Positions 37,136 through 64,000 of a stretch of DNA of 64,000 bases are shown here, piece by piece. The notes beneath the pieces are model-generated. The model ran no database searches. It was not told the origin of the DNA and saw only the letters and a program-made list of their open reading frames with translations. The first letter of the stretch is position 1, and the number at the start of each line of letters is the position of its first letter. The position numbers were made by a program, and so were the translations under genes. Location: positions 1 through 64,000 of IMG/VR virus record IMGVR_UViG_3300009059_000716, one strand, 5' to 3'. Source of the stretch: a virus.

Positions 37136-37136
37136 G

Positions 37137-38396
37137 ATGAGTAAACCATTAGCAGTAGTAAGCTGCCCTATAGACACATATTCAGGATACGGAGCAAGAG
37201 CAAGAGACTTTGTAAAAGCTTTGATCGATTTAGATAAGTACGACGTAAAGGTTTTATCTCAAAGATGGGGTAACACTAGATTTGGTTATTTAGAAGATCA
37301 TAATGAAGATGATTTAAGTTCTAGAATTATACCTAACATGACTGTTAAACCAGACTTATGGGTACAGATTACAGTACCGAATGAGTTTCAAAAAGTAGGT
37401 AAGTTTAACCTAGGAGTTACCGCTGGAATGGAAACTACATTAGTTCATAATACTTGGATTGAAGGATGTAATAGAATGGATCTAAACCTAGTATCATCAG
37501 AACATAGTAAAAAGACTTTTTTAGATACTGTGTATATTAAAGAGGATACTAAAACAAAACAACCTACTGGAGAATTAAGATTAACATCTCCTATGGAGGT
37601 TTTATTAGAAGGAGCTGATTTAACTAAATACTTTCCGACTACAAGTTCATTAGACTTATCTCCTATAAAAGAATCATTTTGTTTCTTATTTGTAGGTCAT
37701 TGGTTAAATGGTGACTTTGGTCAAGATAGAAAAAATGTAGGGTATATGATTAAATCTTTCTTAGAGACATTTAAGAATAAAAAAGATGCACCTGCTTTGA
37801 TTCTAAAGACTAGTCAAGTTACTACTTCTATTACGGATAGAGAAGCAGTATTAGATAAGATAGAACAAATTAGACAATCAGTTAAAGGTACCTTACCAAA
37901 CATCTATCTCTTCCATGGAGATGTAAGTGATTCGGAAATGAATGAACTTTACAATCATCCAAAAGTAAAAGCGATGATTTCGTTTACTAAAGGAGAAGGA
38001 TTTGGAAGACCGTTATTGGAATTCAGCCTTGTTAATAAACCTATCATAGCTTCAGGTTGGTCTGGACATGTAGACTTTTTAGATAAAGAATTTACAAACC
38101 TAGTAAGCGGGGAGTTAACACCAGTACATCCATCAGCAGCATCTAAGGATATGATACTTACCGAAGCTAAATGGTTTAGTGCAGATGAAGCAGCAGTAGG
38201 AAGAATTTTAAAAACAGTACACAAAGACTACAAAAAGTTCTTATCTTTATCTAAGAGACAAGGACATAAAAGTAGAACAGAGTTTAGTTACGAAAAGATG
38301 GTAGAAGTATTAGGTAGAACATTAGACCAATACGTTCCAGAATTTACTAAACAGATAGAATTAAATTTACCAAAATTAGATTTACCAAAATTATAG
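37137..38396 (+). CDS. Glycosyltransferase family 4 (GT-B)
   Basis: SGYG, RKN, GEGFGRPLLE, SGH.DF. Confidence 0.85.
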   Translation: MSKPLAVVSCPIDTYSGYGARARDFVKALIDLDKYDVKVLSQRWGNTRFGYLEDHNEDDLSSRIIPNMTVKPDLWVQITVPNEFQKVGKFNLGVTAGMETTLVHNTWIEGCNRMDLNLVSSEHSKKTFLDTVYIKEDTKTKQPTGELRLTSPMEVLLEGADLTKYFPTTSSLDLSPIKESFCFLFVGHWLNGDFGQDRKNVGYMIKSFLETFKNKKDAPALILKTSQVTTSITDREAVLDKIEQIRQSVKGTLPNIYLFHGDVSDSEMNELYNHPKVKAMISFTKGEGFGRPLLEFSLVNKPIIASGWSGHVDFLDKEFTNLVSGELTPVHPSAASKDMILTEAKWFSADEAAVGRILKTVHKDYKKFLSLSKRQGHKSRTEFSYEKMVEVLGRTLDQYVPEFTKQIELNLPKLDLPKL

Positions 38397-49870: not shown

Positions 49871-50434
49871 ATGATGTATAGATATGACAGAGTAACTTTG
49901 GAATTTAAAAAAATTAAGTATAGTGAAATTTTCTTTAAAACTATATTAGCAACTGTAGTTCTATTTACTCTTTTTAGTTTAACCTATAAATTAGATAGAA
50001 CTAAAATAGATCAACTCACCGACGAAGAGAAACTAATAATTATCTCAGACTATAATGAATTTTCGGAAGAAAAACTTGTTGCTAAGATTAAGGAATTGAA
50101 CTTTAGATACCCACATATTGTATTAGCACAAGCAAAACTAGAAACAGGTTACTTTAAATCAGAAAGTTTTACTTACGCTAATAACTTATTTGGTATGAAA
50201 CAAGCTAAAGCAAGAGCAAATACTGCTGTTGGAACTTCAAGAGGTCATGCTCGTTACGATAGTTGGATTGAAAGTCTATATGACTATGCTCTTTTCCATA
50301 ACGCTTATTTAAATAAGTTAAGAACTGAAGCACTCTACTACGCCTACTTAGGTCAAAATTATGCTGAAGATCCTAAATATGTCGATAAATTAAAAGCTAT
50401 AGTAGAAAAACAAGAATTAAAAAATAAATTCTAA
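49871..50434 (+). CDS. Membrane-anchored glucosaminidase (GH73-like)
   Basis: AQAKLETG, NNLFGMK, YAEDPKY; N-term TM. Confidence 0.85.
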   Translation: MMYRYDRVTLEFKKIKYSEIFFKTILATVVLFTLFSLTYKLDRTKIDQLTDEEKLIIISDYNEFSEEKLVAKIKELNFRYPHIVLAQAKLETGYFKSESFTYANNLFGMKQAKARANTAVGTSRGHARYDSWIESLYDYALFHNAYLNKLRTEALYYAYLGQNYAEDPKYVDKLKAIVEKQELKNKF

Positions 50435-50440
50435 AAAGTT

Positions 50441-50809
50441 ATGAATTTACTATTTCCAAAGTATAAATTATCAGACAAAGAAATACAAATTAAACATATT
50501 ATTGAAAACCTAATTAATGACCCTGTTACTGTTAAGTTAATGGATCCAATTACATCTCATTATTACTTAGATAACAAAAAGTTGGGATACTTTATTCTCA
50601 TTAGTTACAGTATTATAAAAATTACAAATCATAAATTCTACTATACAGAAAATATTAGCAGTAGATTTAGCAGTGAAATTGAAAAATCAATCCAGGTAGC
50701 AATAAGTAAAGATAGAAGAAGAATTGAAGACGAAATGTTTAAAAACGAATCTGATCTTTTGACAAATATTCTTAAAAAAGTCACAGTTCCTAGTTTGAAA
50801 TCTGAATAA
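50441..50809 (+). CDS. Hypothetical protein
   Basis: ORF only. Confidence 0.7.
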   Translation: MNLLFPKYKLSDKEIQIKHIIENLINDPVTVKLMDPITSHYYLDNKKLGYFILISYSIIKITNHKFYYTENISSRFSSEIEKSIQVAISKDRRRIEDEMFKNESDLLTNILKKVTVPSLKSE

Positions 50810-50843
50810 TATTTCTTATCTTTATGTATATAAAAAATAGGTT

Positions 50844-51161
50844 ATGGCAGAAAAGAGGGGTGAAATTGAGAAAATTATAAATGATTTCAACACAGCTGGT
50901 AGTTTAGAGATAAACCATCCTGTAGTAGGTTGGCATAGAGTTACAGCTAAAGACTTCAGATCATTTGATGGCGAAAGAAGAATTACCGAGCCTGAATATA
51001 CCAGACTTAGTACGGTTGAAGTTCCTATGAAGACAGTAGAGTACTTTGGCCCTGTATACTATTGGGGAACTAATAAAGAAGTACGTCCTACTAATTCAGG
51101 AAAGATAATTGATAGCCCTATACAGGCAAAGTTAAACAGAATCTCAGGAAGTAAAGGTTAA
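50844..51161 (+). CDS. Hypothetical protein
   Basis: ORF after promoter; WHRVT..FRSF.G.RRI. Confidence 0.7.
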   Translation: MAEKRGEIEKIINDFNTAGSLEINHPVVGWHRVTAKDFRSFDGERRITEPEYTRLSTVEVPMKTVEYFGPVYYWGTNKEVRPTNSGKIIDSPIQAKLNRISGSKG

Positions 51162-51165
51162 TATA

Positions 51166-51459
51166 GTGAAGTTACATTTCGAAAATACACACGAGTTTGA
51201 AGTCCTATTCAAAAATAAATCAATAGAAGTTACAAATGCTATCTACTTAGGTATTGAAAAAGCAATGCAGGATGGTAAAAAGACTGCTATGTTATTTGAG
51301 ATTACTTTCGAAGAAGCAGAAAGAGCATTTGAAATATCTCTTCCCCGATCTCAATGGGTACAGGCATTAGAGTCCTGTCTTAAACATTTTCACGAACTTG
51401 AAATGTCAAATGAAGCAATAGATTGCTGGAAACTATTAGAAGCAGCAAAAGTCTGGTAA
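51166..51459 (+). CDS. Hypothetical protein
   Basis: ORF only. Confidence 0.7.
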   Translation: MKLHFENTHEFEVLFKNKSIEVTNAIYLGIEKAMQDGKKTAMLFEITFEEAERAFEISLPRSQWVQALESCLKHFHELEMSNEAIDCWKLLEAAKVW

Positions 51460-51476
51460 AAATAAAAAGTAAAGTT

Positions 51477-51737
51477 ATGCCAATAAAAAAAGTATCAGTT
51501 ACAAAGACATCACAGTATTATGTAGATGGGGAAGGTACAGTAGATAGAGATCGAATAGTTACTCTATCTCATGATTGGACTGAAAGAGACATAACCCTCT
51601 TTAAGAAACTAGCCAAACAAGGCGGTACCTGTAGACTTCAGGGGCTTAAGTATACAATCATACCAGGAGAAAAAATAACAACATCCAAAGGATGGGCGGA
51701 TGCTGGAGCAGCTCCAATGCCTGGACCAGAAAATTAA
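51477..51737 (+). CDS. Hypothetical protein
   Basis: ORF from GTT-ATG 51477. Confidence 0.65.
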   Translation: MPIKKVSVTKTSQYYVDGEGTVDRDRIVTLSHDWTERDITLFKKLAKQGGTCRLQGLKYTIIPGEKITTSKGWADAGAAPMPGPEN

Positions 51738-51742
51738 TAGTT

Positions 51743-51991
51743 ATGAAAGAACAAGACTTAATTGATCTAGGATTTATAAAGAATGATGTATCAGCAGAAG
51801 AATCAGGAGATATTTCATTCTACTACTATACTTATGATATTACAGATGAGTTGTGTTTGATATCAAGTGATGATGGAGAGGCTAAAAAAGATGGATGGTC
51901 TGTAGAGATGTTTGATTACGATGGTATTAAGTTTACTAATGTAGAAGACTTAAAAACTCTTATTGATGTTATAGAAAGGAATAAGTTATGA
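51743..51991 (+). CDS. Hypothetical protein
   Basis: ORF from GTT-ATG 51743. Confidence 0.65.
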   Translation: MKEQDLIDLGFIKNDVSAEESGDISFYYYTYDITDELCLISSDDGEAKKDGWSVEMFDYDGIKFTNVEDLKTLIDVIERNKL

Positions 51992-52635
51992 AAAATAGGT
52001 TCGAACTAAAAGATACCCGAACATTTGGACAAAAGGTAAAATCCTTTCTTCAATCACTTTTATTTTGGAAAGGTAGAAAGAAAGGAATGATTCACACTCG
52101 TAATTTAGAGTGGGGTGATTTTCGTTATATCTTTTTTCCTAAAAAGTTAGAAAAGTTTGGGTATTTAGGAATCACATTCTACAAAGAAGATAGTCCTTAC
52201 TTTAAAGCAATCTATCCATTAGTTCTTGCAATGGATTATGAAGCAAAACCAAAATGGTGTCCAAGATGGTTTCTTCGTTTTCTTCATGTCTTCGGTGATG
52301 ATAAAAGTTTGGTAAGAGTTAGAAACCATAAGTTGAGTAATCTACATAGAAGATTAACCAAAGGAATTCAGTTCTGGGATTGGAAAACAAAATGGACTGA
52401 TTATGACCTTCGTATTTCCATAAGTGGACCAGAACATCTACAAAATCTTGCTGATAATATAGAACGAGGGTATTATAGTAGAGGTAGACAAAAAGAGTTG
52501 GTAGAACAGATTAAAAAATTTGACCCGAGTGCAGGTATTATTTGGGGTAGTGTTAGTAGGTTAGAAGAACAACTTGAAGAACTAGAAAATAAAGAAGATG
52601 AAAGCAATACTAGAATTTCAACTCCCGGAAGATAA
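51988..52635 (+). CDS. Hypothetical protein
   Basis: ORF only. Confidence 0.7.
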   Translation: MKNRFELKDTRTFGQKVKSFLQSLLFWKGRKKGMIHTRNLEWGDFRYIFFPKKLEKFGYLGITFYKEDSPYFKAIYPLVLAMDYEAKPKWCPRWFLRFLHVFGDDKSLVRVRNHKLSNLHRRLTKGIQFWDWKTKWTDYDLRISISGPEHLQNLADNIERGYYSRGRQKELVEQIKKFDPSAGIIWGSVSRLEEQLEELENKEDESNTRISTPGR

Positions 52636-52831
52636 ACAAGATTTTGATTTCGCAACTCAAGGTTCGGATTGGTGGAATGTTTGTTGGGAAATGGACCAAT
52701 GGCTCAGAGGAGAAATGAAACATCCAGCTGGCGATATGAGCGATGATACTTACGAGGCATTACAAAAATGTAGAGAGAAACTAAGAGAACTGATTGACGA
52801 TAGTAACCTTAATTTAGATAACGTATTATGA
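52598..52831 (+). CDS. Hypothetical phage protein
   Basis: MKAILEF.LPED start. Confidence 0.7.
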   Translation: MKAILEFQLPEDKQDFDFATQGSDWWNVCWEMDQWLRGEMKHPAGDMSDDTYEALQKCREKLRELIDDSNLNLDNVL

Positions 52832-53157
52832 GTAAAGTAGAACAAAGAAAGATACTAATTGATATAATGAAAGCAGACGAAGCTTCTGGTCTATATGAAG
52901 AGTTAAATTGGAAGCTTGTTAGAGAAAGAGATGGACTTACTAAAGAATCAGAAAAGGTTCTATGGATTGAATTTAATGAAGATGGTAGATTTAAAGAGAA
53001 GTTTGATGAGGTAGCAGTAGGAAGATCTCTTCTTATGTCTCCATTCAATCAGTTCTTTACATGGCAGACTACTTCTATAACAGAGATAGTAGAGCAGAAA
53101 GAGGATTACATTAAATTCAAAACACAAAATTCAAACTACGAATTATTTAAGTTATGA
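52828..53157 (+). CDS. Hypothetical protein
   Basis: ORF; FKTQNSNYEL end. Confidence 0.7.
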   Translation: MSKVEQRKILIDIMKADEASGLYEELNWKLVRERDGLTKESEKVLWIEFNEDGRFKEKFDEVAVGRSLLMSPFNQFFTWQTTSITEIVEQKEDYIKFKTQNSNYELFKL

Positions 53158-53567
53158 AAGCATATAAAATGACAAACCGATATGGAGATAAATTTACATT
53201 TACTCCTCAAGAAGACGGAACCATATTATGGGAAGGTAATTTTGAATATTGTAGATTTGGTTGGCCTAATGACTACACAAAAGCCTTCTTTGAATATACA
53301 AGAGATACCGGAGGAGGTATTTCATTAGAACAGTTTAGAGAATTAGTTCACGCTTATGATGAGGTAAAAGAATCATATGTATTAGAAGACAATAAATATA
53401 GAGAACTTGTTACATCTAATAAAGCTATTATTAATATGGTAGATCCATCTGGCGGACCATACTTAACTTCCGGAATGGCAGTAGAAAGTATATCTAAAGA
53501 ATTAACTGATATGGAAATAGAGAGATTTGAATCGGTTAAAGAGGGTTGGAAAATATATTTAAGATAG
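53154..53567 (+). CDS. Hypothetical protein
   Basis: NRYGD, VDPSGGPY motifs. Confidence 0.7.
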   Translation: MKAYKMTNRYGDKFTFTPQEDGTILWEGNFEYCRFGWPNDYTKAFFEYTRDTGGGISLEQFRELVHAYDEVKESYVLEDNKYRELVTSNKAIINMVDPSGGPYLTSGMAVESISKELTDMEIERFESVKEGWKIYLR

Positions 53568-53627
53568 TTGTTTATTTGAATTATTCTTCTTATATTAAGG
53601 TATAATTAAAAAATGATAATAAAGGTT

Positions 53628-54845
53628 ATGAAAAAAATTATTTTAAGTCTAAGCATTCTTTTTATAGTTAGCTGTACAAAAGATTCATTTACAGATACTG
53701 AACTTGAAAAAGTAATTGACACAGTACCTATCGCAGATAACCCATTTAGTGTAACCTATACACCCGATTATACGAAACCTTCTTACTATACCAGATTGCC
53801 ATTTCCAGAAAATGTAAAAAATGGTACATATAGAGAGTTTAGCAATTGGCACCCTCCTCTAGAAGCTGTAGTTTTAGACTACGATAAAGATGGTTACTTA
53901 GACATTATAGACAATCAATCAGACTACGGGGTATTTAGAAGAAACAGTATACTATTTCTAAAAGGTAATTCTTCTGGTAAGTTAGATATTGATAGGGAGA
54001 ACTCATATAAACATACTGGTCTCATTCATGGGCGGAAAGGTCTTGTAGGTGATTACAATGGAGATGGATGGCCAGATGTATTTTTTATTGGACATGGATA
54101 CGATGTAGTAGACGGAAATCCAAGAGATGAATACCCCATAATGCTCCTTAATAATCAGGGGAAAGATTTTGAATATAGAGCTTTTGAATCAGTAGTTGGT
54201 TTTTTTCATACGGGTGCTAGTGGAGATATAGATAACGATGGAGATTTAGATATACTAGTAATTGACGGTACTAAAGGAGTTAGTAATTCTTATATCTTTA
54301 TCAACGACGGAAGTGGTAACTTTGAAAAGAAAACTTTAGATCAATATTCGTCTATACCTAATAATCTCTATGATTCATTTTTCCAAAAATGGACTGTGGA
54401 ACTAAAAGATATAGACAACAACGGGTACTTAGATATTATAATAGCTGGTGCACCGGATATGTATGATAGTACACCGCCTACTATAATGTTGAATTCTGCA
54501 AATGGATTTACCAGTAAAATTGAACTACCAAGAGAACCTGTATATAAATTAGTTGTAGATATAGACTTTTATGATTTTGATGGTGACGGGATAGATGAGT
54601 TAATACTAAACAGAACACCTTTAAATTATATATCTTATAAAGTTACTATTCATAGTTTAACTAGTGACGAGTACTTAACCACTACCTACTTCAATAACAG
54701 TGAGTATACAGGTCAGACTTCAGATAAATGGATGTATTGGATTTCTATCATTGAAAAAGATGGGGAACTATATTTAAAGGGAGACGATATGTATACTCCA
54801 CATGAATGGATTTTTGAAGATGGAAAGTTTAAAAAAATAAAATAA
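53628..54845 (+). CDS. Lipoprotein with FG-GAP/VCBS repeats
   Basis: Lipobox IVSC; repeated DxDxDGxxD (DYDKDGYLD, DYNGDGWPD, DIDNDGDLD, DIDNNGYLD, DFDGDGIDE). Confidence 0.85.
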   Translation: MKKIILSLSILFIVSCTKDSFTDTELEKVIDTVPIADNPFSVTYTPDYTKPSYYTRLPFPENVKNGTYREFSNWHPPLEAVVLDYDKDGYLDIIDNQSDYGVFRRNSILFLKGNSSGKLDIDRENSYKHTGLIHGRKGLVGDYNGDGWPDVFFIGHGYDVVDGNPRDEYPIMLLNNQGKDFEYRAFESVVGFFHTGASGDIDNDGDLDILVIDGTKGVSNSYIFINDGSGNFEKKTLDQYSSIPNNLYDSFFQKWTVELKDIDNNGYLDIIIAGAPDMYDSTPPTIMLNSANGFTSKIELPREPVYKLVVDIDFYDFDGDGIDELILNRTPLNYISYKVTIHSLTSDEYLTTTYFNNSEYTGQTSDKWMYWISIIEKDGELYLKGDDMYTPHEWIFEDGKFKKIK

Positions 54846-55244
54846 ATGATAAAAGGAGTAATTGCCGGAAACTTTGACGTAATGCATCCAGGCTACATAA
54901 AGATGTTTAAAGAAGCAGCAGCAAATTGCGACTGTTTAGTAGTCTTACTTCATACTGACCCTTCTATTGAACGCCCACATAAGCTTAAACCTATTCTATC
55001 TATAGAAGAACGTAAAGAGATGTTGTTTGAATTAAAATCAATATGTGGCATACTTACGTATACTTATGAAGAACAGCTCTTAGACTTACTAAAAATGGGG
55101 GAGTTTGATGTAAGGTTCCTTGGAGATGATTATAAAGGTAAGCCTTTTACTGGAGACTATCTAAACATTCCTATTTATTATTTGAATAGGGATCACGGGT
55201 GGTCTACTACAAAGTTTAAAAAAATGATAGCTAAAACTGTATGA
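54846..55244 (+). CDS. Cytidylyltransferase family (TagD/RfaE-like)
   Basis: GNFDVMHPG, ER.E, GDDY, R.H.WSTT. Confidence 0.85.
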   Translation: MIKGVIAGNFDVMHPGYIKMFKEAAANCDCLVVLLHTDPSIERPHKLKPILSIEERKEMLFELKSICGILTYTYEEQLLDLLKMGEFDVRFLGDDYKGKPFTGDYLNIPIYYLNRDHGWSTTKFKKMIAKTV

Positions 55245-55365
55245 TAATACAGGAAAAGATTTTAACCCCTCACCTAGCTACAGAAGTTACTTCCGGAAAA
55301 CGTTTAGTACTCGTATAATGTTCTTAAGACAAGAAAACTTACAAATTAAAAGTGGATTAATTTGA
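55241..55365 (+). pseudogene. Internally deleted, frameshifted 2OG-Fe(II) oxygenase remnant
   Basis: MIIQEKILTP-HLATEVTSGKRLVLV, then shifted frame MFLRQENLQIKSGLI*; matches termini of downstream oxygenases. Confidence 0.6.
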
Positions 55366-55430
55366 ATCTTCTTATTAGATTACAAAACATACCTATATTT
55401 ATATTAAATAAAGCTTTATAACTTATAATC

Positions 55431-57635
55431 ATGAAAGGAACCCTTTTTTCAACAGATTTTGTTAAAGACTCTAATGGAAACTTAAGATTGCTTGAAATCA
55501 ATACAGATACTGCTATTGTTTCTTCTGCAATCAAACAATTAGACTTTACAGGATTTAAACAAGTATTAGAAAGTAATTCTATTACAAAAGTAAAGACAAT
55601 CCATAAACTATATCAAGAAGATATCGTAGAAGCATTAAAAGCATACTTAGATGCAAATGTACCTTCAGTAAACTCTTTTGAAAGTATAGTTGAAGATAGC
55701 AACACTATTTATCCTACATCTGTAGAAGATGCAGCAGATACCTTTATCTTAAGGTTAGCTTATGATGAAGCTGCATTATTAGATAGTGAATATGCTAAAA
55801 ACACACACAATATTCTAAAACTATTCAGCGACAATGGGCAAATTAGTTCAACAGTTGGGTATTATTATGCTGGAGGCGGTAGTATAGAAGACCACCTTAC
55901 AAGAGATTTTAATGCTGAAAACGTTCCTGATATTTTAGTTAAAAACTTGAACACTACTTTAGGAGAGCCGATTGAGTTCTTTAAAATAGGTCAATCAAGT
56001 AAGACAGCTGAAGATAGATTTGCTGATGTATTCGATATGTTAGATGATACTAAAATTGCTATGAACTTCTACAACGATGAAGCAGCAGCAAAAGTAGAAT
56101 CTTTTAGAACATTACACATAGTATACGGAAGCGACCTAAACGTTATCGATGTAGCAGGATTTAAATCTTCAGCTATATTAGATAAACCAGCTTCTCTATC
56201 AGTAGTAGATGAAGATATAGTAACGAAAGTAGATGTAAAGCACTACCATGAATTAACTACTACATTACCTAGATTTGGAGTAGGTTCTAACTACGGAGGT
56301 ATCTTTGAAGAAGAGTTTATTGTAAAAGCAGACGGTACGTTAGTACCTATTAAAGACGCTACAGTAGGAGATTCCTTTAAATCATACTTTATTTCAGGTT
56401 CACCCGATACAGACATTGAATCAGAATATCTAGCATGGACTTACCCAGGATCTGAATTACCTAGTGGTTCTTACGCTACAACTTCTACTTTAGTAAACAA
56501 CTTAGAAGTAGGTTTATTCTATAATATGATCTTCCACGTAACTTTACAAGACGGAAGTGATTTTAGAGCAACAGGAAACTCTCACGTATTAGTTTACGAT
56601 GTACAGGCAGACTTATTAAAGTATGTTGCAGTAAACTATCTATCATCAGATAAACATAAATTAATATCTGCAGGAAATGGATTAGTAGATATTACAGGAG
56701 TTGTTTGTGAGATATTAGATGGGGAGTATTCTTCTCATATTCTAGATATGGAAATAGCCGATACATTCTTCATCGGTGATGGACAATTAAGCGTTAAGAT
56801 TGTTGCCCACAACTGCTTCCCAGCTGGTACTAAAATTACAATGGCTGATGGTTCAGTCAAAAACATTGAAGACGTTAAGGCAGGAGATAAACTATTAACT
56901 ATCAACGAAAATACTTTAGAACAATCAGAAGGTAGAGTTGGAGATGTATTAGTTAAGAAAGATAGATTGTTATTCGAATTCAAATTAGAAGACGGAGGAG
57001 TAATCAAATCTACATCTCATCACAGATATTTCGTAAAAGAAAAGTCATGGTTAACTGCTCAAGATATTCAAGTAGGAGACGTATTAGTTAGATCAAACGG
57101 AGATGATGTCAAAGTAGAATCAATTGAACAGCACGAAGGTGAGTTTGAAGTATTCCATATTATTGATGTAAAAGATAACCATACTTACTACGCAGAAGAT
57201 ATTTTAGTTCATAACTATAAAGCTTGTTTCATCGCTGGAACAGAGATTACTTTAGCGAATGGAGATGTTAAAAATATCGAAGATGTAGCAGTAGGAGAAG
57301 AAGTTCTTACTTACAACGAAGATAAAAAAGAAACAGAAGCAGGAGTAGTAGGAGACTTGAAGAAACATGAAGTTCAATCTGTAATCAGATTAACTCTTGA
57401 TAATGAGAATGTAATCGTAACAACTGAAGAACATCCTTTCTATGTAGTAGATGCAGGATGGGTAAAAGCAGGAGAATTACAACCATTAGATGTTTGTTTA
57501 AAAGAAGACGGTAAAGAATCTCTAATCTCTTCAGTAGAGGTATTAGAAGAGAAACATGAAGTATTTAACTTACTAAGCGTTTCTGAAAACCATAACTTCT
57601 TCGCTAACGGAATATTAGTTCACAATAAAAAATAA
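55431..57635 (+). CDS. Circularly permuted ATP-grasp-like domain fused to three tandem Hint domains
   Basis: DFVKD..G.LRLLEINTDT; Hint1 G290..VAHN, Hint2 C462FPAGT..LVHN, Hint3 C599FIAGT..LVHN. Confidence 0.8.
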   Translation: MKGTLFSTDFVKDSNGNLRLLEINTDTAIVSSAIKQLDFTGFKQVLESNSITKVKTIHKLYQEDIVEALKAYLDANVPSVNSFESIVEDSNTIYPTSVEDAADTFILRLAYDEAALLDSEYAKNTHNILKLFSDNGQISSTVGYYYAGGGSIEDHLTRDFNAENVPDILVKNLNTTLGEPIEFFKIGQSSKTAEDRFADVFDMLDDTKIAMNFYNDEAAAKVESFRTLHIVYGSDLNVIDVAGFKSSAILDKPASLSVVDEDIVTKVDVKHYHELTTTLPRFGVGSNYGGIFEEEFIVKADGTLVPIKDATVGDSFKSYFISGSPDTDIESEYLAWTYPGSELPSGSYATTSTLVNNLEVGLFYNMIFHVTLQDGSDFRATGNSHVLVYDVQADLLKYVAVNYLSSDKHKLISAGNGLVDITGVVCEILDGEYSSHILDMEIADTFFIGDGQLSVKIVAHNCFPAGTKITMADGSVKNIEDVKAGDKLLTINENTLEQSEGRVGDVLVKKDRLLFEFKLEDGGVIKSTSHHRYFVKEKSWLTAQDIQVGDVLVRSNGDDVKVESIEQHEGEFEVFHIIDVKDNHTYYAEDILVHNYKACFIAGTEITLANGDVKNIEDVAVGEEVLTYNEDKKETEAGVVGDLKKHEVQSVIRLTLDNENVIVTTEEHPFYVVDAGWVKAGELQPLDVCLKEDGKESLISSVEVLEEKHEVFNLLSVSENHNFFANGILVHNKK

Positions 57636-57640
57636 GAATC

Positions 57641-57781
57641 ATGCCAGTAGTATATAAATCATTTGATTACCAAACAGAAGCAAGAGACAAAGCAGTAGAA
57701 GCAGCAGATGTAACTACAAAACAGCAAATGAATGACATCGTTGCAAGCTTTGTAAATTTATTTAAAGCTAAACACCTATAG
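57641..57781 (+). CDS. Small protein, 46 aa (not in ORF track)
   Basis: MPVVYKSFDYQTEARDK...LFKAKHL; 5 nt after Hint gene, 14 nt before next. Confidence 0.65.
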   Translation: MPVVYKSFDYQTEARDKAVEAADVTTKQQMNDIVASFVNLFKAKHL

Positions 57782-57795
57782 TATACAGCTTTAAA

Positions 57796-58323
57796 ATGGT
57801 TACTGAAAAAACGTTATTCTCACAACAAGATTGCGAATACATTAAATCATTTTATGATGTAGCAATTGAGAAGAACGAAAAAGGTTTCAAAATAAACTCA
57901 GACAAATACCCACAAGGTATAGCAATAAAAGACGGTTCAGCAGTATCATGGAATGAAATCCAAAACGATACTCTGGACCGTTTCTTGTTAAGTAAGCTTA
58001 TAGAGTTAGAAATAACTTCACTCCCTTATCTTAAGCTAATGAAGTACGGAGTCGGAAATGAAATGAAACCTCATAGAGATTTTCAGGCATATGATACAAG
58101 TACAATCTATAGATCAACAACAATACAGCTAACCAGTCCGGAAGATTATAAAGGAGGAGAGTTATATGTAGAAGGAGTAAAAGCTAGTAATATACAAGGA
58201 ACTGCAATTATGTTTAACCCCTATCAAACACATTGGGTTACAGAGATTACTGAAGGAGAAAGATGGGTTATAGTAGCTTTTTTAGAAGAGTTTCATTTTA
58301 ATACTAAGAAAAGTTTATTATGA
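57796..58323 (+). CDS. 2OG-Fe(II) oxygenase (prolyl-hydroxylase-like)
   Basis: KY..G..PHRD, YKGGEL, H.VTEITEGER. Confidence 0.88.
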   Translation: MVTEKTLFSQQDCEYIKSFYDVAIEKNEKGFKINSDKYPQGIAIKDGSAVSWNEIQNDTLDRFLLSKLIELEITSLPYLKLMKYGVGNEMKPHRDFQAYDTSTIYRSTTIQLTSPEDYKGGELYVEGVKASNIQGTAIMFNPYQTHWVTEITEGERWVIVAFLEEFHFNTKKSLL

Positions 58324-58829
58324 TTGATCAAAAAGTATTATTTACAGCAGAAGAATGTGAGTGGTTGAAATCCGCACAATCAACTATATACCCACCAGTA
58401 GAAGATACTAAATGGTGGGAGTCACATCGTATAAATTATAGATTTAAAAATATACAAGAAAGAGAAGTATTTGAACAGTCACGTTTAGATTTTGTTGCTA
58501 GTAGAGTTAAACAATTAGGAGTGAAATCTGTTCCTACATATAAAATTATACATTACGGTAAAGGTGGATTCTTCGCCCCTCACATAGATTCAGGGAGAAA
58601 CCATCCAATTAGAAGAAAAACATTATTAGTGCAGCTATCCTCTAAAGAAGATTATTCTGGAGGTGATATGTATGTTAAGGGTGTACTTTTTGAAAAGACA
58701 ATAGGCAATACAATATTATTTGATTCGTCATTAACTCATGAACTAAAATTAATAGAAGGAGGAAATAGATTAGTTATGGTCACATGGTTATCTATTTATA
58801 ACCTTGAGAATCCTAAAACTTTACTATGA
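58320..58829 (+). CDS. 2OG-Fe(II) oxygenase (prolyl-hydroxylase-like)
   Basis: HY.KG.FF.PHID, YSGGDM, HEL..I.GG.R. Confidence 0.88.
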   Translation: MIDQKVLFTAEECEWLKSAQSTIYPPVEDTKWWESHRINYRFKNIQEREVFEQSRLDFVASRVKQLGVKSVPTYKIIHYGKGGFFAPHIDSGRNHPIRRKTLLVQLSSKEDYSGGDMYVKGVLFEKTIGNTILFDSSLTHELKLIEGGNRLVMVTWLSIYNLENPKTLL

Positions 58830-59350
58830 TAACAGTTAAACATAACGTACTGTCGGATAGAGAGGTAAACAAGCTACTCACTTTATGGTATGATACAAAA
58901 CCTAACCATATTATAACAGACGGCTATAAGTATAATATTGAAGCAGTAGAGATTTTAGACTACATAGATAAATTAAAACTTTCGTATTCTTTTCCAAAAG
59001 AACACTATAGGGACTTTATACTACAGACAATAGATGAAACACATAGCAAAGCTCCTAATCATGACAAATATCACCGACATGAAAATGAATGGACATATGT
59101 TATGTACTTAAATGATAACTATCAAGGAGGAGAAATAGAGTTTACTAATGGAACTATCATTAAACCACAAGTAGGAGATGTTATATACTTTTCACCTGAA
59201 GAAGGACATAGAGTTAAACCCCCATATGATTTTACCGAACAGTATTTTAAACACAACGGTAAGAGTATTCTTATGAATAAAAGATGGTCACTTGTCGGAT
59301 TCATGAATTCTGACATTATAAACGAGAATAAAAAAACATGCTTAATTTAA
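58826..59350 (+). CDS. 2OG-Fe(II) oxygenase (divergent)
   Basis: HRH, YLNDNYQGGE, HRV, RWSLV. Confidence 0.8.
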   Translation: MITVKHNVLSDREVNKLLTLWYDTKPNHIITDGYKYNIEAVEILDYIDKLKLSYSFPKEHYRDFILQTIDETHSKAPNHDKYHRHENEWTYVMYLNDNYQGGEIEFTNGTIIKPQVGDVIYFSPEEGHRVKPPYDFTEQYFKHNGKSILMNKRWSLVGFMNSDIINENKKTCLI

Positions 59351-60042
59351 TTTATACCTATTCAATCAAACTTAGCGGTAACAGTATAGAAAAATACGTT
59401 AAACTCCTAAATAAAGCATACCTACATAACAGTAAGTACCATTCTATAGTACTATATACCGATAGGGAGACATTACCGTATGTAGAAGATATTTTTCCGG
59501 AGATAAGATTAGTAGAAATAGACAATCTTCAATTTATGGATGATATAAAAATGAAGATTATAGATAAACTTGAAAGCAATAGTATACTTACAGATTACGA
59601 TATCTTTTTAAACTCACCTTTAATACTTCCAGACAATTTTGATGTGTATGTAGATAGAAGAGGTAAGGTAAAAGAGTTAGTACTGTACAGCCATTTGTTT
59701 GAACATTTAAGACATGAAGGTTATGGTATTTTTACTAAAGATGTAAATACCTATTTGAATGTAGGTATATTAAAAATCAACAGTGAACATAAAATAAAAG
59801 CTATTAAAGACGCATATTACGCTTTAAGAAATTGGTATGTGGATAATAAAATAGAAGAAAGAACTCAATTTACATACCATACAGGAGTATGCCCTTCTAT
59901 AGCAGCTTTACAGTACAATTTAGATAAAATAGCTACTATAAGTAACTGGAAAGTATGTGAGATGAAAAAATACAACAACTACCATCATTTAGTTGGAGAA
60001 GATAAATTTAAAGAAATAAGCACAAAAAATACTGTGATTTAG
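59338..60042 (+). CDS. Nucleotide-diphospho-sugar transferase-like protein
   Basis: LYTD, K, DYDIFL, NVGI, HLVG. Confidence 0.55.
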   Translation: MLNLIYTYSIKLSGNSIEKYVKLLNKAYLHNSKYHSIVLYTDRETLPYVEDIFPEIRLVEIDNLQFMDDIKMKIIDKLESNSILTDYDIFLNSPLILPDNFDVYVDRRGKVKELVLYSHLFEHLRHEGYGIFTKDVNTYLNVGILKINSEHKIKAIKDAYYALRNWYVDNKIEERTQFTYHTGVCPSIAALQYNLDKIATISNWKVCEMKKYNNYHHLVGEDKFKEISTKNTVI

Positions 60043-60102
60043 TTGTCAAAACAGTATATTTTTCATATATTTAGATATATTAATCTATTAAAGACAAATG
60101 TT

Positions 60103-60291
60103 ATGAACAAATTATTTTTTGTACCTTCAACCAAAATTAACGCAAGAATTGCCGACACTGTTGTTACAGGACAGCATATTACAGTAGAAGGGTTAACTTA
60201 CCAAATGGTATCAAAAAGACCACTTGGAAGAAGAGTACTAAGACGTCTAATTAACGAATCTACAAATACAAAAATTGTAATCTATTCATAA
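60103..60291 (+). CDS. Small hypothetical protein
   Basis: ORF from GTT-ATG 60103 after promoter. Confidence 0.55.
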   Translation: MNKLFFVPSTKINARIADTVVTGQHITVEGLTYQMVSKRPLGRRVLRRLINESTNTKIVIYS

Positions 60292-60295
60292 CCAA

Positions 60296-61084
60296 ATGAA
60301 AGCAATATATAGCTACAAAATATTCTCAGACCAACGTAAACCTTTAGATAAAACGTTTTGGAAACTAGCTGCATATAGTGTTAAGTCTGCTTCTAAGTAT
60401 TATAGAACAGTTCTGTACTCCGATGAAGAAAGTGGAAAGCTATTTGATAGACACGGAATTTATTTTGATGAGTATCATATTCTTCCTGAAATAGAAAATT
60501 ATAAAGGAAGGGTTTATAGTGTACCAAAAATATATGCAATGATTGCTGAGAAAGAGCCATATATTCATTTAGACTTTGACTCTGTAATACTGGAAGAGAT
60601 TATATCTACACACACTATTACATACGCATATACAGAAGTTGATTTAATAAATCTAGCAGGGTATGCTAGAATAGATTACGTATTTGGAGGATATGTAAGA
60701 CCTTATCGAGACTTGTTGGTTGATATATTTAAGGATGATATAATATATCCTGATTTTAATATAGTACCTAACCATTCTTTTCTGATGGTAAAAAATCCAA
60801 CTATTGTTAGAGAGATTTACAAAAGAATACTCAGTAAAATACCAGCGGACATATTAGAAGAAGTAAGCCCTACATTATTAGAGCAATGTCTACTTTACCT
60901 ATACTTAAAAGAAAATCAAACAGATATAGGATACTTAAGTTGGTATTCAGCAGAGAAGTTTTTAGAACGTGAGTTCGGTTCTTATAAATTTATACATTTA
61001 CCATTTTACAACGAACCGGAAAAGAAAGAAGAAGTAGAGTTTGTTCTTAAAAAACTTGAAGAACAATTCGGCCCAATCGAATAA
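60296..61084 (+). CDS. Nucleotide-diphospho-sugar transferase-like protein (DUF6734-like)
   Basis: LYSD, PKIYA, PYIHLDFD, EQ..L, FIHL. Confidence 0.6.
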   Translation: MKAIYSYKIFSDQRKPLDKTFWKLAAYSVKSASKYYRTVLYSDEESGKLFDRHGIYFDEYHILPEIENYKGRVYSVPKIYAMIAEKEPYIHLDFDSVILEEIISTHTITYAYTEVDLINLAGYARIDYVFGGYVRPYRDLLVDIFKDDIIYPDFNIVPNHSFLMVKNPTIVREIYKRILSKIPADILEEVSPTLLEQCLLYLYLKENQTDIGYLSWYSAEKFLEREFGSYKFIHLPFYNEPEKKEEVEFVLKKLEEQFGPIE

Positions 61085-61099
61085 CAGTTATACCTTATT

Positions 61100-61450
61100 A
61101 TGAAAATTAAAGAGCTACTTTTAGGAGCCGTGTTATTTACTCTCGGACAGAGCATAGCCTGGTACCAGACTAATGGGCAATTTATAAGTAGTTGGATAAA
61201 AGAACATCCGTTACTTATGTCGGCAATAGTTGGAGTACCTGTTGGGATGTGTTATATTTACGGAACAACGTACACAGTAAGTGCTTTTGAAGGAGAATTA
61301 TGGCCGGCAAGAATTATAGGATTTACAACTGGTATATTTTCCTTTACAGTTCTTACTACACTACACTTAAATCAGACAATCGACCTTAAGACAGGTGTCA
61401 TACTTAGTCTTGCAATTATAATTATTTTACTACAAGCTTTTTGGAAATGA
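61100..61450 (+). CDS. Four-TM membrane protein
   Basis: Four hydrophobic helices, SMR/DMT-like size. Confidence 0.7.
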   Translation: MKIKELLLGAVLFTLGQSIAWYQTNGQFISSWIKEHPLLMSAIVGVPVGMCYIYGTTYTVSAFEGELWPARIIGFTTGIFSFTVLTTLHLNQTIDLKTGVILSLAIIIILLQAFWK

Positions 61451-62331
61451 ATTTTTTAGATAGTCAATATCAAGACCTCCTCAAATACATTATTGAGAAA
61501 GGTCAAATAAAAGAAGATAGAACCGGAACCGGAACATTATCAGTATTTGGTAGACAATTTAGACATGAGATGTCATTAGGCTTTCCTCTCCTAACAACAA
61601 AGAAGATAGCAGTCAAAACTATGATGACTGAACTGAAATGGTTTCTAAAAGGAGATACTAATATCAAGTATTTAGTTGATAACGGTTGTAATATTTGGAA
61701 TGGTGATGCTTATAAGAATTATAGAAATAAGTTTGAACCAGCCCCTTATCAATTTACTCCAGATACAATGGAAGAGTTCATCAACAAAATCAAAACCGAT
61801 GATGAGTTCGCAGAGGAGTGGGGTGAGTTAGGTCCAATATATGGAAAGCAATGGACTGATTGGAATGGTATAGACCAGATATTAAATCTTCTTAACTCAA
61901 TAAAGAAGAACCCAAATAGTAGAAGATTGATGGTATCGGCTTGGAATGTAGGTGAATTACATGAGATGACATTACCTCCTTGTCATTACGGATTCCAGAT
62001 AAATGTTAGAGGAGAGTATTTAGACCTAATGTGGAATCAAAGAAGTGTAGATACATTTTTAGGAGTACCTTTTAATATAGCCTCATATGGTCTGCTACTT
62101 AGTCTAATAGCGTATGAGACAGGTTATAAGCCTGGTTCTCTCATAGGATCTCTAGGAGATACACATCTATACACAAACCATATAGAACAGGCGAAGGAAC
62201 AGATAAAAAGAACTTCATTTGATCTTCCTACTCTTAAGATTATTTCATCTGATATTCTAAATGGAGAGTTTGAAGTAGAGTTTGAGAACTATATTTCACA
62301 TCCTGCAATAAAAGCACCTTTATCAAATTAA
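61447..62331 (+). CDS. thyA: Thymidylate synthase
   Basis: DRTGTGT, FPLLTTK, LGPIYGKQW, LPPCH, QRSVD, PFNIASY, HLY.NH. Confidence 0.96.
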   Translation: MNFLDSQYQDLLKYIIEKGQIKEDRTGTGTLSVFGRQFRHEMSLGFPLLTTKKIAVKTMMTELKWFLKGDTNIKYLVDNGCNIWNGDAYKNYRNKFEPAPYQFTPDTMEEFINKIKTDDEFAEEWGELGPIYGKQWTDWNGIDQILNLLNSIKKNPNSRRLMVSAWNVGELHEMTLPPCHYGFQINVRGEYLDLMWNQRSVDTFLGVPFNIASYGLLLSLIAYETGYKPGSLIGSLGDTHLYTNHIEQAKEQIKRTSFDLPTLKIISSDILNGEFEVEFENYISHPAIKAPLSN

Positions 62332-62387
62332 AGTTTGTAGTCTGAATTATTCTTCTTATATTAAGGTAGTTAAAAAAAGAAAAGGTT

Positions 62388-62753
62388 ATGCATTTAAGAA
62401 CTACAAGAAGATTAGCTGAGAAGTATTTAAACAATTGTGAGAAAGTTTACGGATTAAGTAAGTTTCATGATAGCACTCCTTACATAGAGTTTCAACCTTA
62501 TGTTCATTCTGTTTACACAGAAGATGATAATCCAATTGCAGAGTATATCTTTGACTATAATACTATTGTAATATACTATAAGAATATTCACAGTGCAGAA
62601 GATTTAGCTCAAACTATCGTTCATGAATACCAACACTACTTACAATCACCAAGCTGGATGACTAGATACTATAATATGGGCTTCTGTTATTCAGACCATC
62701 CATATGAAATAGCAGCATTTAATGAAGAGAAAAATTGGAAATTAGTTGCTTAG
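62388..62753 (+). CDS. Zincin-like metalloprotein
   Basis: IVHEYQHYLQ..HPYEIAA. Confidence 0.7.
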   Translation: MHLRTTRRLAEKYLNNCEKVYGLSKFHDSTPYIEFQPYVHSVYTEDDNPIAEYIFDYNTIVIYYKNIHSAEDLAQTIVHEYQHYLQSPSWMTRYYNMGFCYSDHPYEIAAFNEEKNWKLVA

Positions 62754-62801
62754 TTAAAGTACATTTCACTATTTATTAAGAACTAAACTAAACTAGAATA
62801 T

Positions 62802-63614
62802 ATGGCATGTGGTTGTGGAAGATCTCCAGACGGATGTAGAGGCTGGCACTCTTTAACAGAAGAAGAATTCAAAGTAGAATATGATGCGTTTCTAAAAGAA
62901 AAAGATGGTATCTTAAGAGTAAAAGAGGTAGAACATTATACCGATACTCTATTCAAATTCAAGTTAACTAAAACAGACGAATATAAATTTAAGGCCGGAC
63001 AGTTTACAATGTTAAATGTAGACGGTGCACCAAAAAGAGCTTATAGCTATACAAGTGGTCCGGAAGATGATTTTATAGAGTTCTATAGTATAAAGGTACC
63101 AAATGGACCTCTTACAAGTAAGCTTCAGAAGATACAAGTAGGAGACTTTGTAAATGTTTCTCCAAAAGCTACTGGAACACTCATAGTAGATAATCTTACA
63201 GAAGGAGACGATTTATGGTTACTTGCTACAGGAACTGGAATTGCACCATTCATTAGTATGTTATGTGATCCTTTAACTTACGACAGATTTAAAAACATTC
63301 ATGTTGTATGGTCGGTAAGAGTAAAAGAAGAACTAGACGCTTTTCATGATTGGTTAGGAAGTATAGGAATAGATTATATTCCAATTGTTACTCGAGATGA
63401 TAGATGGGAAGGAGAGAAAGAAAGAATAACAACTCTTATTCAAAGAGGAGACATAATGAAAGATAGTACTCCAGATAATGATAAAGTAATGCTATGCGGT
63501 AATATGGACTTCAACAAAGAGATAAAAAATCTACTTGTTGACGAAAGAGGATGGGTAGAAGGTAATAGTAGACAAGCAGGATCATTTGCTTTAGAGAAAG
63601 CTTTTGTTGGATAA
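62802..63614 (+). CDS. fpr: Ferredoxin-NADP reductase with N-terminal CDGSH-like Cys/His motif
   Basis: GQF, RAYS, GPLT..L, ATGTGIAPF, MLCGN; N-term CGCGRSP..C.GWH. Confidence 0.9.
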   Translation: MACGCGRSPDGCRGWHSLTEEEFKVEYDAFLKEKDGILRVKEVEHYTDTLFKFKLTKTDEYKFKAGQFTMLNVDGAPKRAYSYTSGPEDDFIEFYSIKVPNGPLTSKLQKIQVGDFVNVSPKATGTLIVDNLTEGDDLWLLATGTGIAPFISMLCDPLTYDRFKNIHVVWSVRVKEELDAFHDWLGSIGIDYIPIVTRDDRWEGEKERITTLIQRGDIMKDSTPDNDKVMLCGNMDFNKEIKNLLVDERGWVEGNSRQAGSFALEKAFVG

Positions 63615-63674
63615 AAAGTTGCTGCAATGGACTATTATTCTTATATTAAGGTATAATTAAAAATAGTAAGAGTT

Positions 63675-64000
63675 ATGACAACAGCAAAACTTTATTTAGT
63701 TACTTTTGAGTATGAAGGTACAAAATTTTTCAAAGTAGGTATTACAGAAAAAGGAGATGTAATGGATAGGTTTAAGTACTCTATACTTAAATATAAACTA
63801 ATGAACTTTAAAATACATAAGTCCTCTTGGTTTAAATCTTTGGAAGCAGCAGAGAAAGCTGAACAAAAATGCTTTGCAGACATTAAACAAACCTTTCCAG
63901 AAAATAACTATGTTGATGCTCAAGGGAACCACTACTTCCATAATAAGTGGTTAGATGAAAAGATAAATGGTATAACTGAAATCAGAGTATACAATGGAGA
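63675..64000 (+). CDS. GIY-YIG/T5orf172-like nuclease (3'-truncated, not in ORF track)
   Basis: LYLV..FFKVGIT...DRF..AE..EQ..GITE. Confidence 0.65.
   Translation, partial: MTTAKLYLVTFEYEGTKFFKVGITEKGDVMDRFKYSILKYKLMNFKIHKSSWFKSLEAAEKAEQKCFADIKQTFPENNYVDAQGNHYFHNKWLDEKINGITEIRVYNG

Follow-up and report, generated by a model that had tools for sequence, protein, structure and literature searches.

The 64,000-nucleotide stretch of viral DNA analyzed here (the window; positions 1 to 64,000 of IMG/VR record IMGVR_UViG_3300009059_000716) comes from an uncultured marine-type phage. The source record, of 94.8 kb, is about 58% complete, has a G+C content of about 33%, and carries all of its genes on one strand. 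At positions 55431..57635 (+ strand, as are all genes described below) an open reading frame (ORF) is translated into a protein of 734 amino acids, here called M. From its N to its C terminus, M comprises a circularly permuted ATP-grasp domain (residues 1 to 289; 55431..56297), a half-disabled Hint domain (Hint1, residues 290 to 461; 56298..56813), an intact mini-Hint of the bacterial intein-like (BIL) type (Hint2, residues 462 to 595; 56814..57215), a YKA linker (residues 596 to 598; 57216..57224), a second intact BIL-type mini-Hint (Hint3, residues 599 to 732; 57225..57626), and a final KK (residues 733 and 734) with the stop codon (57627..57635). The next ORF (57641..57781) begins six bases past the M stop codon and encodes a protein of 46 amino acids, here called s. 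We regard the architecture and folds of M as almost certainly those just described. At least 649 full-length relatives of M were found (242 representatives at 50% identity), so the architecture is not due to chance; nearly all of the representatives listed have the start of their ATP-grasp domain at residue 1, and a constant core of ATP-grasp domain and Hint1 is followed by 0, 1, 2, or 3 intact Hints. The evidence described below strongly supports the view that M is the large subunit of an ATP-dependent amide ligase that consists of two proteins and is specific to phages. The reading that we favor, with a rough probability of 0.4, is that M and s form a self-processing ligase hub that acts on the lysine-bearing tail of M itself.

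The N terminus of M reads D9-F-V-K-D-S-N-G-N-L-R-L-L-E22-I-N24-T-D-T. A preliminary description of the locus, in which all named residues and motifs were found by translation to be correctly placed, had taken this segment as the mark of a permuted ATP-grasp ligase of the glutathionylspermidine synthetase (GspS) type, and the predicted fold agreed. An AlphaFold2 (AF2) model of residues 1 to 294, built from an alignment of 120 family members, had a mean predicted local distance difference test score (pLDDT) of 95.0 and a predicted template modeling score (pTM) of 0.90. Its best Foldseek matches were all permuted ATP-grasp ligases (2hgs, with an E value of 2e-6 and a probability of 1.00; 3o98; 7uk6; 7uk8), the top group being human and yeast glutathione synthetase, Escherichia coli glutathionylspermidine synthetase, YjfC, and YgiC (E values of 2e-6 to 2e-5). 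When aligned by VIA-align, the model matched 2hgs with a Z score of 10.6 (root mean square deviation of 4.7 Å over 226 residues) and YjfC with a Z score of 9.8 (4.1 Å over 212 residues), in each case from residue 1 to about residue 281. The unpermuted enzymes TTL, ArgX, RimK, and Ddl reached Z scores of 5.6 to 6.7 and could be aligned only from about residue 50, as could LysX. Because permuted enzymes align from residue 1 and unpermuted ones only from about residue 50, the model identifies residues 1 to 289 as a circularly permuted ATP-grasp domain of the glutathione synthetase/GspS/YgiC-YjfC type. Within the domain, D9, E22, T25, and D118 were invariant and K2, N24, R108, K171, and R226 nearly so; E22 together with N24, which is Asn in 99% of relatives, fits the Mg-binding E-x-N motif. 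Judged by their identity, the conserved residues are those that a working Mg-ATP site would need. No ATP-grasp sequence model fits the domain, and leads from the ESM Atlas reached only 0.80 to 0.83; the type of substrate is therefore not transferable from relatives, and the kinship is one of fold only.

Hint1 opens with NYGG, with G290 at the position of Cys1, has TGNS at residues 381 to 384 in place of TxxH, and ends in VAHN (residues 458 to 461). Taken alone it had no Pfam match, but its family profile aligned with the profile of Hint2 and Hint3 with an hhalign probability of 94.5% (E value of 7e-8 over 124 columns). In an AF2 model of residues 1 to 466, referred to below as the core (pLDDT of 92.4; pTM of 0.87), Foldseek superposed Hint1 on 6y75 with template modeling (TM) scores of 0.77 to 0.79 and on 2lwy with a score of 0.83 (E values of about 1e-8), and also on the DnaB intein and Hedgehog (1at0; TM score of 0.76), so that the scores spanned 0.76 to 0.83 overall. 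Among 111 diverse sequences, position 290 was Gly in 90%, H460 was retained in 98%, and N461 was retained in 100%; relatives of M without a further Hint still terminated in His-Asn plus 1 to 12 residues. These results bear out the proposal of the preliminary description that Hint1 stays on the ATP-grasp domain, lacks Cys1, and keeps VAHN: Hint1 has the Hint fold and is a permanent part of M from which the thioester half of the machinery (Cys1 and the block-B His) has been lost. The core model strongly supported a rigid packing of Hint1 on the ATP-grasp domain. From the residues that remain, Hint1 should be capable only of Asn cyclization, which would cut the bond after N461, and conservation suggests that selection has held this half as firmly as it has the ligase site.

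Hint2 and Hint3 presented a different picture. Hint2 starts with C462, carries TSHH at residue 528, and ends in LVHN (residues 592 to 595); Hint3 starts with C599, carries TEEH at residue 665, and ends in LVHN (residues 729 to 732), after which only KK and the stop codon follow. When each domain was compared with Pfam alone, both exceeded the cut-offs of PT-HINT (57.4 bits with an E value of 2.5e-15 for Hint2 and 59.2 bits for Hint3, versus 27.7) and of Intein_splicing (38.9 and 57.0 bits, respectively, versus 35.8), and PT-HINT was also the best Pfam match for the pair within whole M (101.9 bits). At 134 amino acids each, the two domains are too short to hold an endonuclease, and Pfam Hom_end_hint covered only their first 28 to 31 residues; the earlier claim that both keep all catalytic residues and lack a homing endonuclease was thus upheld. 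Neither qualified as a canonical intein, in that the residue after the Asn is Y596 in Hint2 and K733 in Hint3 and only two or three residues follow; across the family, this position is mostly K, F, R, or Y. The catalytic residues were nevertheless kept almost without exception among 398 distinct active Hints of the family (Cys1 in 398, His-Asn in 397, and TxxH in 396). The closest sequences in the PDB were 2lwy for the single sequence (E value of 1e-14) and 6tmm and 2lwy for the family profile (9e-26 and 9e-24, respectively), with 6y75 also among the best. By their residues and nearest relatives, Hint2 and Hint3 are A-type BIL domains. Such domains are reported to undergo splicing or cleavage although no nucleophile follows the Asn, and BIL2 of Tetrahymena is reported to form Lys isopeptide bonds (PMC8616854). 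A variant of the family was also seen in which the last Hint is without the terminal His-Asn and ends in a conserved extension of about 35 residues (SGLGDN..LN..F.RQ....). It occurs in L007, L008, L020, L025, L026, L028, L029, and L045 and in P0088, P0091, P0092, P0128, P0136, and others, and several of these proteins finish in ...KHL, like the C terminus of s.

The identity of Hint2 to its relatives tracks that of the core (Hint1), whereas the identity of Hint3 does not. Between M and the related protein P0100, identity was 39% over the ATP-grasp domain, 30% over Hint1, and 38% over Hint2, versus 94% over the last Hint (Hint3 of M); identity steps up precisely at C599, which is preceded by different linkers in the two proteins (HNYKA|C in M and HN-R|C in P0100). 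Because a segment of 94% identity lies within a protein that is otherwise 30 to 39% identical and its edge coincides with C599, Hint3 is very probably a recently acquired, horizontally mobile cassette that has exact boundaries and no endonuclease. Comparison of 55431-58323 with the closest related locus (L001) gave DNA identities of 86% over the ATP-grasp domain, 93% over Hint1, and 96% over Hint2, rising to 100% over Hint3, the s ORF, and the first oxygenase gene. This rise points to a recombination junction inside the M gene.

The segments that lie between and after the Hints were joined for each protein into a single reconstructed tail, which for M consists of YKA plus KK. All 163 distinct reconstructed tails of 20 or fewer amino acids contained Lys, and 117 of the 163 ended in it, although Lys accounts for 5.7% of these proteins overall; these counts are not phylogenetically independent. 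The joined tails, such as YKAKK, FKYGGGSK, and APRK, resemble the tails of members without a further Hint, such as YKLKPQF, AKSY, and K. In 392 of 408 cases, one of the two residues next after the His-Asn of an active Hint was Lys or Arg. The linkers between Hints were of 0 to 14 residues in most relatives, with rare Cys-rich exceptions that were far longer, and they had nothing in common in sequence beyond Lys or Arg. Because the linkers vary freely while the joined tail always holds Lys, YKA and KK appear from the sequences to be the first and last pieces of one Lys-bearing tail interrupted by Hints and not products in themselves. A distant clade (27 to 29% identity) differs in this region: a Cys-rich peptide of 30 to 80 residues stands straight after the His-Asn of Hint1 and ends near a Lys (L081:7001-8536 and L082:7001-8536; P0229, P0232, P0243, P0246, P0249, P0251, and P0252). 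A small ORF of 38 amino acids and neighbors bearing the end-tag described below are present there too, and the protein looks like a self-releasing peptide precursor.

A homologue of s (43 to 53 amino acids) was found 0 to 100 nucleotides downstream of the M gene in 81 of 81 loci; at four further loci, ORFs of 38 to 50 amino acids, one of them divergent, are likely counterparts as judged by eye and unscored. Y5 of s was invariant and K6 nearly so. When the core and s were predicted as a complex, with ATP and Mg included, the interaction prediction score from aligned errors (ipSAE) was 0.85, versus 0.02 for the best of three controls; 58 of 80 solved complexes attained that mark, as did 2 of 110 mismatched pairs, a calibration that is rough only, owing to our own alignments and the small molecules. 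Three runs shared at least 96% of their contacts, and the pLDDT of s was 91. In the model, residues 3 to 6 of s (strand VVYK) pair with Hint1 strand 427-430, the C-terminal helix of s lies on a conserved hydrophobic patch of the ATP-grasp domain (F10, L20, Y121, L131, F132, and L236), and nearly every residue of s is in contact. The prediction and the conserved adjacency make s probably a bound subunit, and in the model it looks like a stoichiometric clamp across the ATP-grasp domain and Hint1 and not like a free substrate. The possibility that s is a free carrier or a precursor peptide was also considered and was made less likely by the buried clamp model; when s was checked as a precursor of the kind used in the synthesis of ribosomally synthesized and posttranslationally modified peptides (RiPPs), a buried clamp was predicted and no core motif was identified. 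A separate protein, P0237 (302 amino acids, on one contig of 4.8 kb), has an ATP-grasp domain without a Hint and closes with 26 residues that could be aligned over the full length of the C-terminal helix of s (hhalign E value of 2e-4). The protein may represent a form in which domain and helix are fused and the Hints are absent; searches of IMG/VR and of JGI metagenome contigs did not recover its locus.

In the window, s is followed by three genes for 2-oxoglutarate (2OG)-Fe(II) oxygenases, the first after a gap of 14 nucleotides and the others with overlaps of 4 nucleotides: oxygenase 1 (57796..58323; 175 amino acids; Pfam 2OG-FeII_Oxy_3, 1.2e-9) ends in ...NTKKSLL, oxygenase 2 (58320..58829; 169 amino acids; Pfam, 1.2e-9) ends in ...NPKTLL, and oxygenase 3 (58826..59350; 174 amino acids; Pfam, 2.4e-8) ends in ...NKKTCLI. 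The next gene (59338..60042) encodes a protein of 234 amino acids that ends in ...STKNTVI; it had no match in Pfam, PHROGs, NCBIfam, or PADLOC, and its family (cluster 5) recurs in 19 related loci. Among 62 dereplicated loci, 57 had 2OG-Fe(II) oxygenase paralogues, 26 had radical SAM genes, and 16 had SET-domain genes, the last almost always immediately after the s gene, and several families of unknown function also recurred. The preliminary description had asked whether the number of Hints varies among homologues while the small ORF and the oxygenases persist as neighbors. The number of Hints did vary, from 0 to 3, and both the s gene, which was present in every locus examined, and the oxygenases were conserved neighbors, but 5 of the 62 loci had no 2OG oxygenase nearby and one locus outside the 62 (L083) had neither an oxygenase nor tagged neighbors. 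Because oxygenase-free homologues exist, the enzyme array is accessory.

The genes after s share a C-terminal end-tag. Defined by the pattern [KRNQ]-x-[LIVFM]-[LIVF] at the C terminus, which undercounts and misses variants such as KKTCLI, the tag was found on 189 of the 349 genes lying at positions +2 to +8, as opposed to 19 of the 275 distant genes (Fisher's exact test, P = 1.6e-39). In its consensus, K-x-[LI]-[IL]-COOH, Lys stands at -3, Leu or Ile at -1, and Ile or Leu in the last place. The tag occurs on unrelated families, namely, 2OG oxygenases, radical SAM proteins, SET-domain proteins, and families of unknown function. All four genes after s in the window are tagged (KSLL, KTLL, TCLI [a variant], and NTVI), compared with only 2 of 81 other + strand genes of the window that match the pattern. 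Codons and stop codons differ between the tags of the window, so the signal resides in the protein; an origin of the tag as a by-product of overlapping starts was rejected because of these differences and because only two of the four tags overlap ATGA. Apart from M and s, no untagged gene was shared by all loci, and the reader of the tag would therefore be M-s if it is encoded locally; we give this an even chance. Homologues of the 2OG oxygenases without the tag were found in the cultured cyanophage S-8S53, which probably has no M, as tblastn found no homologue of the ATP-grasp domain in the phage collection that holds it. A conserved insertion in Hint1 (residues 318 to 352; 56382-56486), with the pattern G.PDTD.......W...GS.LPSGS..TSS and G340 as Gly in 93%, makes no contact with s in the complex model and is a candidate binding surface; a correlation between the presence of tags and this insertion was looked for, and none was found.

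Homologues of M were nearly confined to contigs of uncultured phages, of up to 326 kb. A search of 185,579 species genomes gave a single match, L087 (CAYNGR010000277.1; 2.8 kb), in the metagenome-assembled genome of an uncultured Cyanobium; this contig is probably phage DNA and gives a weak hint of the host, being too small to name it. In tblastn searches of cultured and deposited phages, matches were confined to the Hint part of M and never included the ATP-grasp domain, and megablast of 50000-64000 gave no match. Clusters of carbamoyltransferases and 2OG oxygenases were described in cyanophages by a survey of jumbo phages, without an M gene (PMC7824862), and no description of the ATP-grasp/Hint fusion, the clamp, or the end-tag was found in the literature. 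M did not fit as a canonical intein host, as a PT-HINT toxin, as a BUBL locus, or as a member of any curated ATP-grasp family. Its parts come from known superfamilies.

Under the reading that we favor, Hint2 and Hint3 would remove themselves by BIL-type splicing or cleavage, and the M-s pair would serve as a hub at which the co-encoded enzymes dock via their K-x-[LI]-[IL]-COOH ends. The ligase and the docked enzymes would act on the Lys tail, or on the Cys-rich peptide in the distant clade, and Asn cyclization by Hint1 would then free the tail. That the inserted Hints have kept their catalytic residues so strictly suggests that the phage has a stake in the state of the M C terminus. That the tail is a substrate that is eventually released is an idea that we hold only tentatively. 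Less probable still is the proposal that the Lys tail (or the Cys-rich peptide) is an encoded work-piece on which docked hydroxylases, methyltransferases, and radical SAM enzymes, together with the ligase, build a modified lysine or peptide that Hint1 releases. Several observations weigh against the hub. A tail with a lone Lys would be an odd product, and only one product would be made per protein of 734 amino acids. If Hint1 sheds everything downstream, the intact Hint2 and Hint3 under selection need another explanation. The strand with H460 and N461 and the tail were modeled at a pLDDT of less than 50 in the core model, residues 1 to 289 had no Pfam match even at an E value of 10 and none in NCBIfam, and some loci (L057, L040, and L083) have few or no tagged genes.

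The same observations may be arranged differently. The tags could be the substrates of the ligase, such that M-s joins the C-terminal carboxylate of the tagged enzymes to an amine and thereby caps or tethers them; the amine might be a polyamine, the Lys of the M tail, or a Lys of a virion or host protein. The nearest folds (glutathione synthetase, GspS, and YgiC/YjfC) all activate the C-terminal carboxylate of a peptide, YgiC and YjfC are peptide-spermidine ligases according to a reference cited in PMC12568646, and the tag is a free C terminus with two hydrophobic residues that is confined to the genes around M. We consider this arrangement unlikely, however, as it leaves the invariant His-Asn of Hint1 and the conserved Lys tail without a role and as some M-s loci have no tagged gene nearby. 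Equally unlikely, in our estimate, is that M-s resembles RimK or TTL in being an ordinary ligase of proteins or metabolites that acts in trans, its target belonging to the host or the phage. The Hints would then be selfish elements or fossils and the tag would be read outside the module; Hint1 would have been domesticated for a structural role, its His-Asn serving only to shed insertions that arrived later. In favor of this account, Hint3 is clearly mobile and the number of Hints varies, and the SET-domain and P4H-like 2OG oxygenase neighbors are typical protein modifiers. This account is at odds with the conservation of N461, which is as invariant as the catalytic residues of the ATP-grasp domain even where only 1 to 12 residues follow, with the Lys that the tail always keeps, and with the restriction of tags to the vicinity of M-s and their absence from oxygenase homologues of a cultured phage in which no M was found.

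Yet another chemistry would be self-conjugation as at BUBL loci, in which a Lys amine would attack the thioester formed by Hint2 at N461-C462 and an isopeptide bond to a target would be formed without ATP, the joined part being the ATP-grasp-Hint1 core or whatever precedes the active Hint. By sequence profile, the nearest relatives of the active Hints are BIL2 of BUBL1 (9e-26), which is reported to make such bonds to Lys (PMC8616854), and the Clostridium thermocellum BIL (9e-24), and Lys or Arg follows nearly every active Hint. The active Hints are, however, optional; 21 proteins of the family set analyzed here are without any, so they cannot carry the core function, and Hint3 is a recent arrival in M. 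We therefore rate self-conjugation as quite improbable. Lower still stands the proposal of the preliminary description, by which excision of Hint2 and Hint3 releases or thioester-activates YKA and KK, to be ligated to a target by the ATP-grasp domain. The catalytic residues of both Hints are intact and cleavage at the junctions is chemically plausible, but the linkers, mostly of 0 to 14 residues, share only Lys or Arg, relatives differ in Hint number (0 to 3), and Hint3 was inserted recently, with exact boundaries, before the terminal Lys; we have accordingly all but abandoned this proposal.

Elsewhere in the window, a small conserved protein is encoded at 60043-60291, where the likely true start is an internal ATG that gives 62 amino acids; its cluster occurs in 14 related loci, usually just 5' of thymidylate synthase, and the protein ends in ...I-[IL]-[IL]-[YF]-[SGN] and had no family match. 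Directly upstream of M lie genes for an FG-GAP-repeat protein with a lipoprotein-like signal (MKKIILSLSILFIVSC; 53613-54845) and for a small cytidylyltransferase-like protein (54846-55244), neither of which has an end-tag. The phage encodes a GroEL-type chaperonin (23403-25049; PHROG 5725, E value of 8e-165), and a Nol-like carbamoyltransferase and three glycosyltransferase-like genes are present (9464-11119, 1537-3039, and 35687-38396). Carbamoyltransferases also recur 5' of the module in 18 related loci, and the set in the window resembles the sugar and amino acid modification clusters of cyanophages (PMC7824862). A scan of 54800-61500 for promoters and terminators gave 31 sites, versus 33.9 expected from shuffled sequence, and thus no excess. 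No other copy of the Hint was found in the 94.8-kb record itself, PADLOC gave no match to a defense system for M, s, and their neighbors beyond generic Hint and 2OG ones, and the tagged families of unknown function had no match in NCBIfam.

If the work-piece proposal is true, phages possess a self-cleaving, protein-templated biosynthetic hub with a four-residue C-terminal docking code. This would be a new organization of a multienzyme pathway, in which unrelated enzymes plug into a ligase hub and a half-disabled intein relative provides the release step. The family is common and hence probably matters for phage biology in aquatic systems. Possible tools include a Hint limited to cleavage, compact and mobile BIL-type mini-Hints in which Lys is tolerated behind the Asn, and a minimal docking tag. 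Two results do not depend on the hub: the conserved pairing of a 289-residue ATP-grasp domain with a 46-residue clamp, and the movement, with exact boundaries, of a Hint that has no endonuclease.

Several known systems resemble parts of the module. The characterized permuted ligases (glutathione synthetase, 2hgs; GspS, 3o98 and 2io7; YgiC/YjfC, 7uk8 and 7uk6) ligate a peptide to an amine through its C-terminal carboxylate, which they activate. The M domain has the same fold and the same permutation (Z scores of 8.8 to 10.6), and the E-x-N Mg-binding strand is N terminal there as in M. Sequence identity to the M domain is only 8 to 13%, however, and the known enzymes have 370 to 600 amino acids, making the M domain, at 289, much smaller. 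Unlike them, it is also fused to Hints and paired with a separate predicted clamp of 46 residues.

With the A-type BILs (2lwy of C. thermocellum; 6y75 and 6tmm of Tetrahymena BUBL1 BIL2), Hint2 and Hint3 share Cys1, TxxH, and His-Asn, the lack of an endonuclease and of Cys, Ser, or Thr after the Asn, and a tandem arrangement; these BILs were also the best fold matches of Hint1. BILs have been described from ciliate polyubiquitin loci and from bacterial proteins that are secreted, in both cases with real domains on their flanks. Those of M are instead placed inside the 1- to 14-residue tail of a phage ligase, next to a permanent copy, Hint1, that is without Cys1. Ubiquitin-like domains flank the BIL at BUBL loci, whereas by Pfam there are none in M, whose linkers have 0 to 3 residues. 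The PT-HINT domain of polymorphic toxins (PF07591) releases the part downstream of it, a behavior that fits the distant clade with its Cys-rich peptide. In those toxins, however, the downstream part is a toxin cargo and the upstream part a delivery or repeat region, whereas M has only KK after Hint3, an enzyme upstream, and a phage enzyme module as its setting. The C-terminal autoprocessing domain of Hedgehog (1at0) is, like the Hints of M, a Hint fold placed C terminal of a functional domain, whose end it processes; it uses Cys1 and the thioester without a terminal Asn reaction, and Hint1 has thus kept the opposite half of the machinery.

Among systems of similar logic, the pathway of LysW with the ATP-grasp enzymes LysX and ArgX and the RiPP pathways combine a ligase, a small protein of about 50 amino acids, and tailoring enzymes that act on a tethered group. 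ArgX with LysW (3vpb) was among the ATP-grasp fold matches (VIA-align Z score of 6.5). However, s is predicted to be an almost fully buried clamp and not a free carrier. The graspetide and microviridin RiPPs employ unpermuted ATP-grasp enzymes of the MdnB/C type, in contrast to the permuted fold of M. In RiPP pathways it is the substrates that bear a leader, whereas in the M module the enzymes bear the recognition tag. Finally, release in the M module would be brought about by a built-in Hint and not by a protease.

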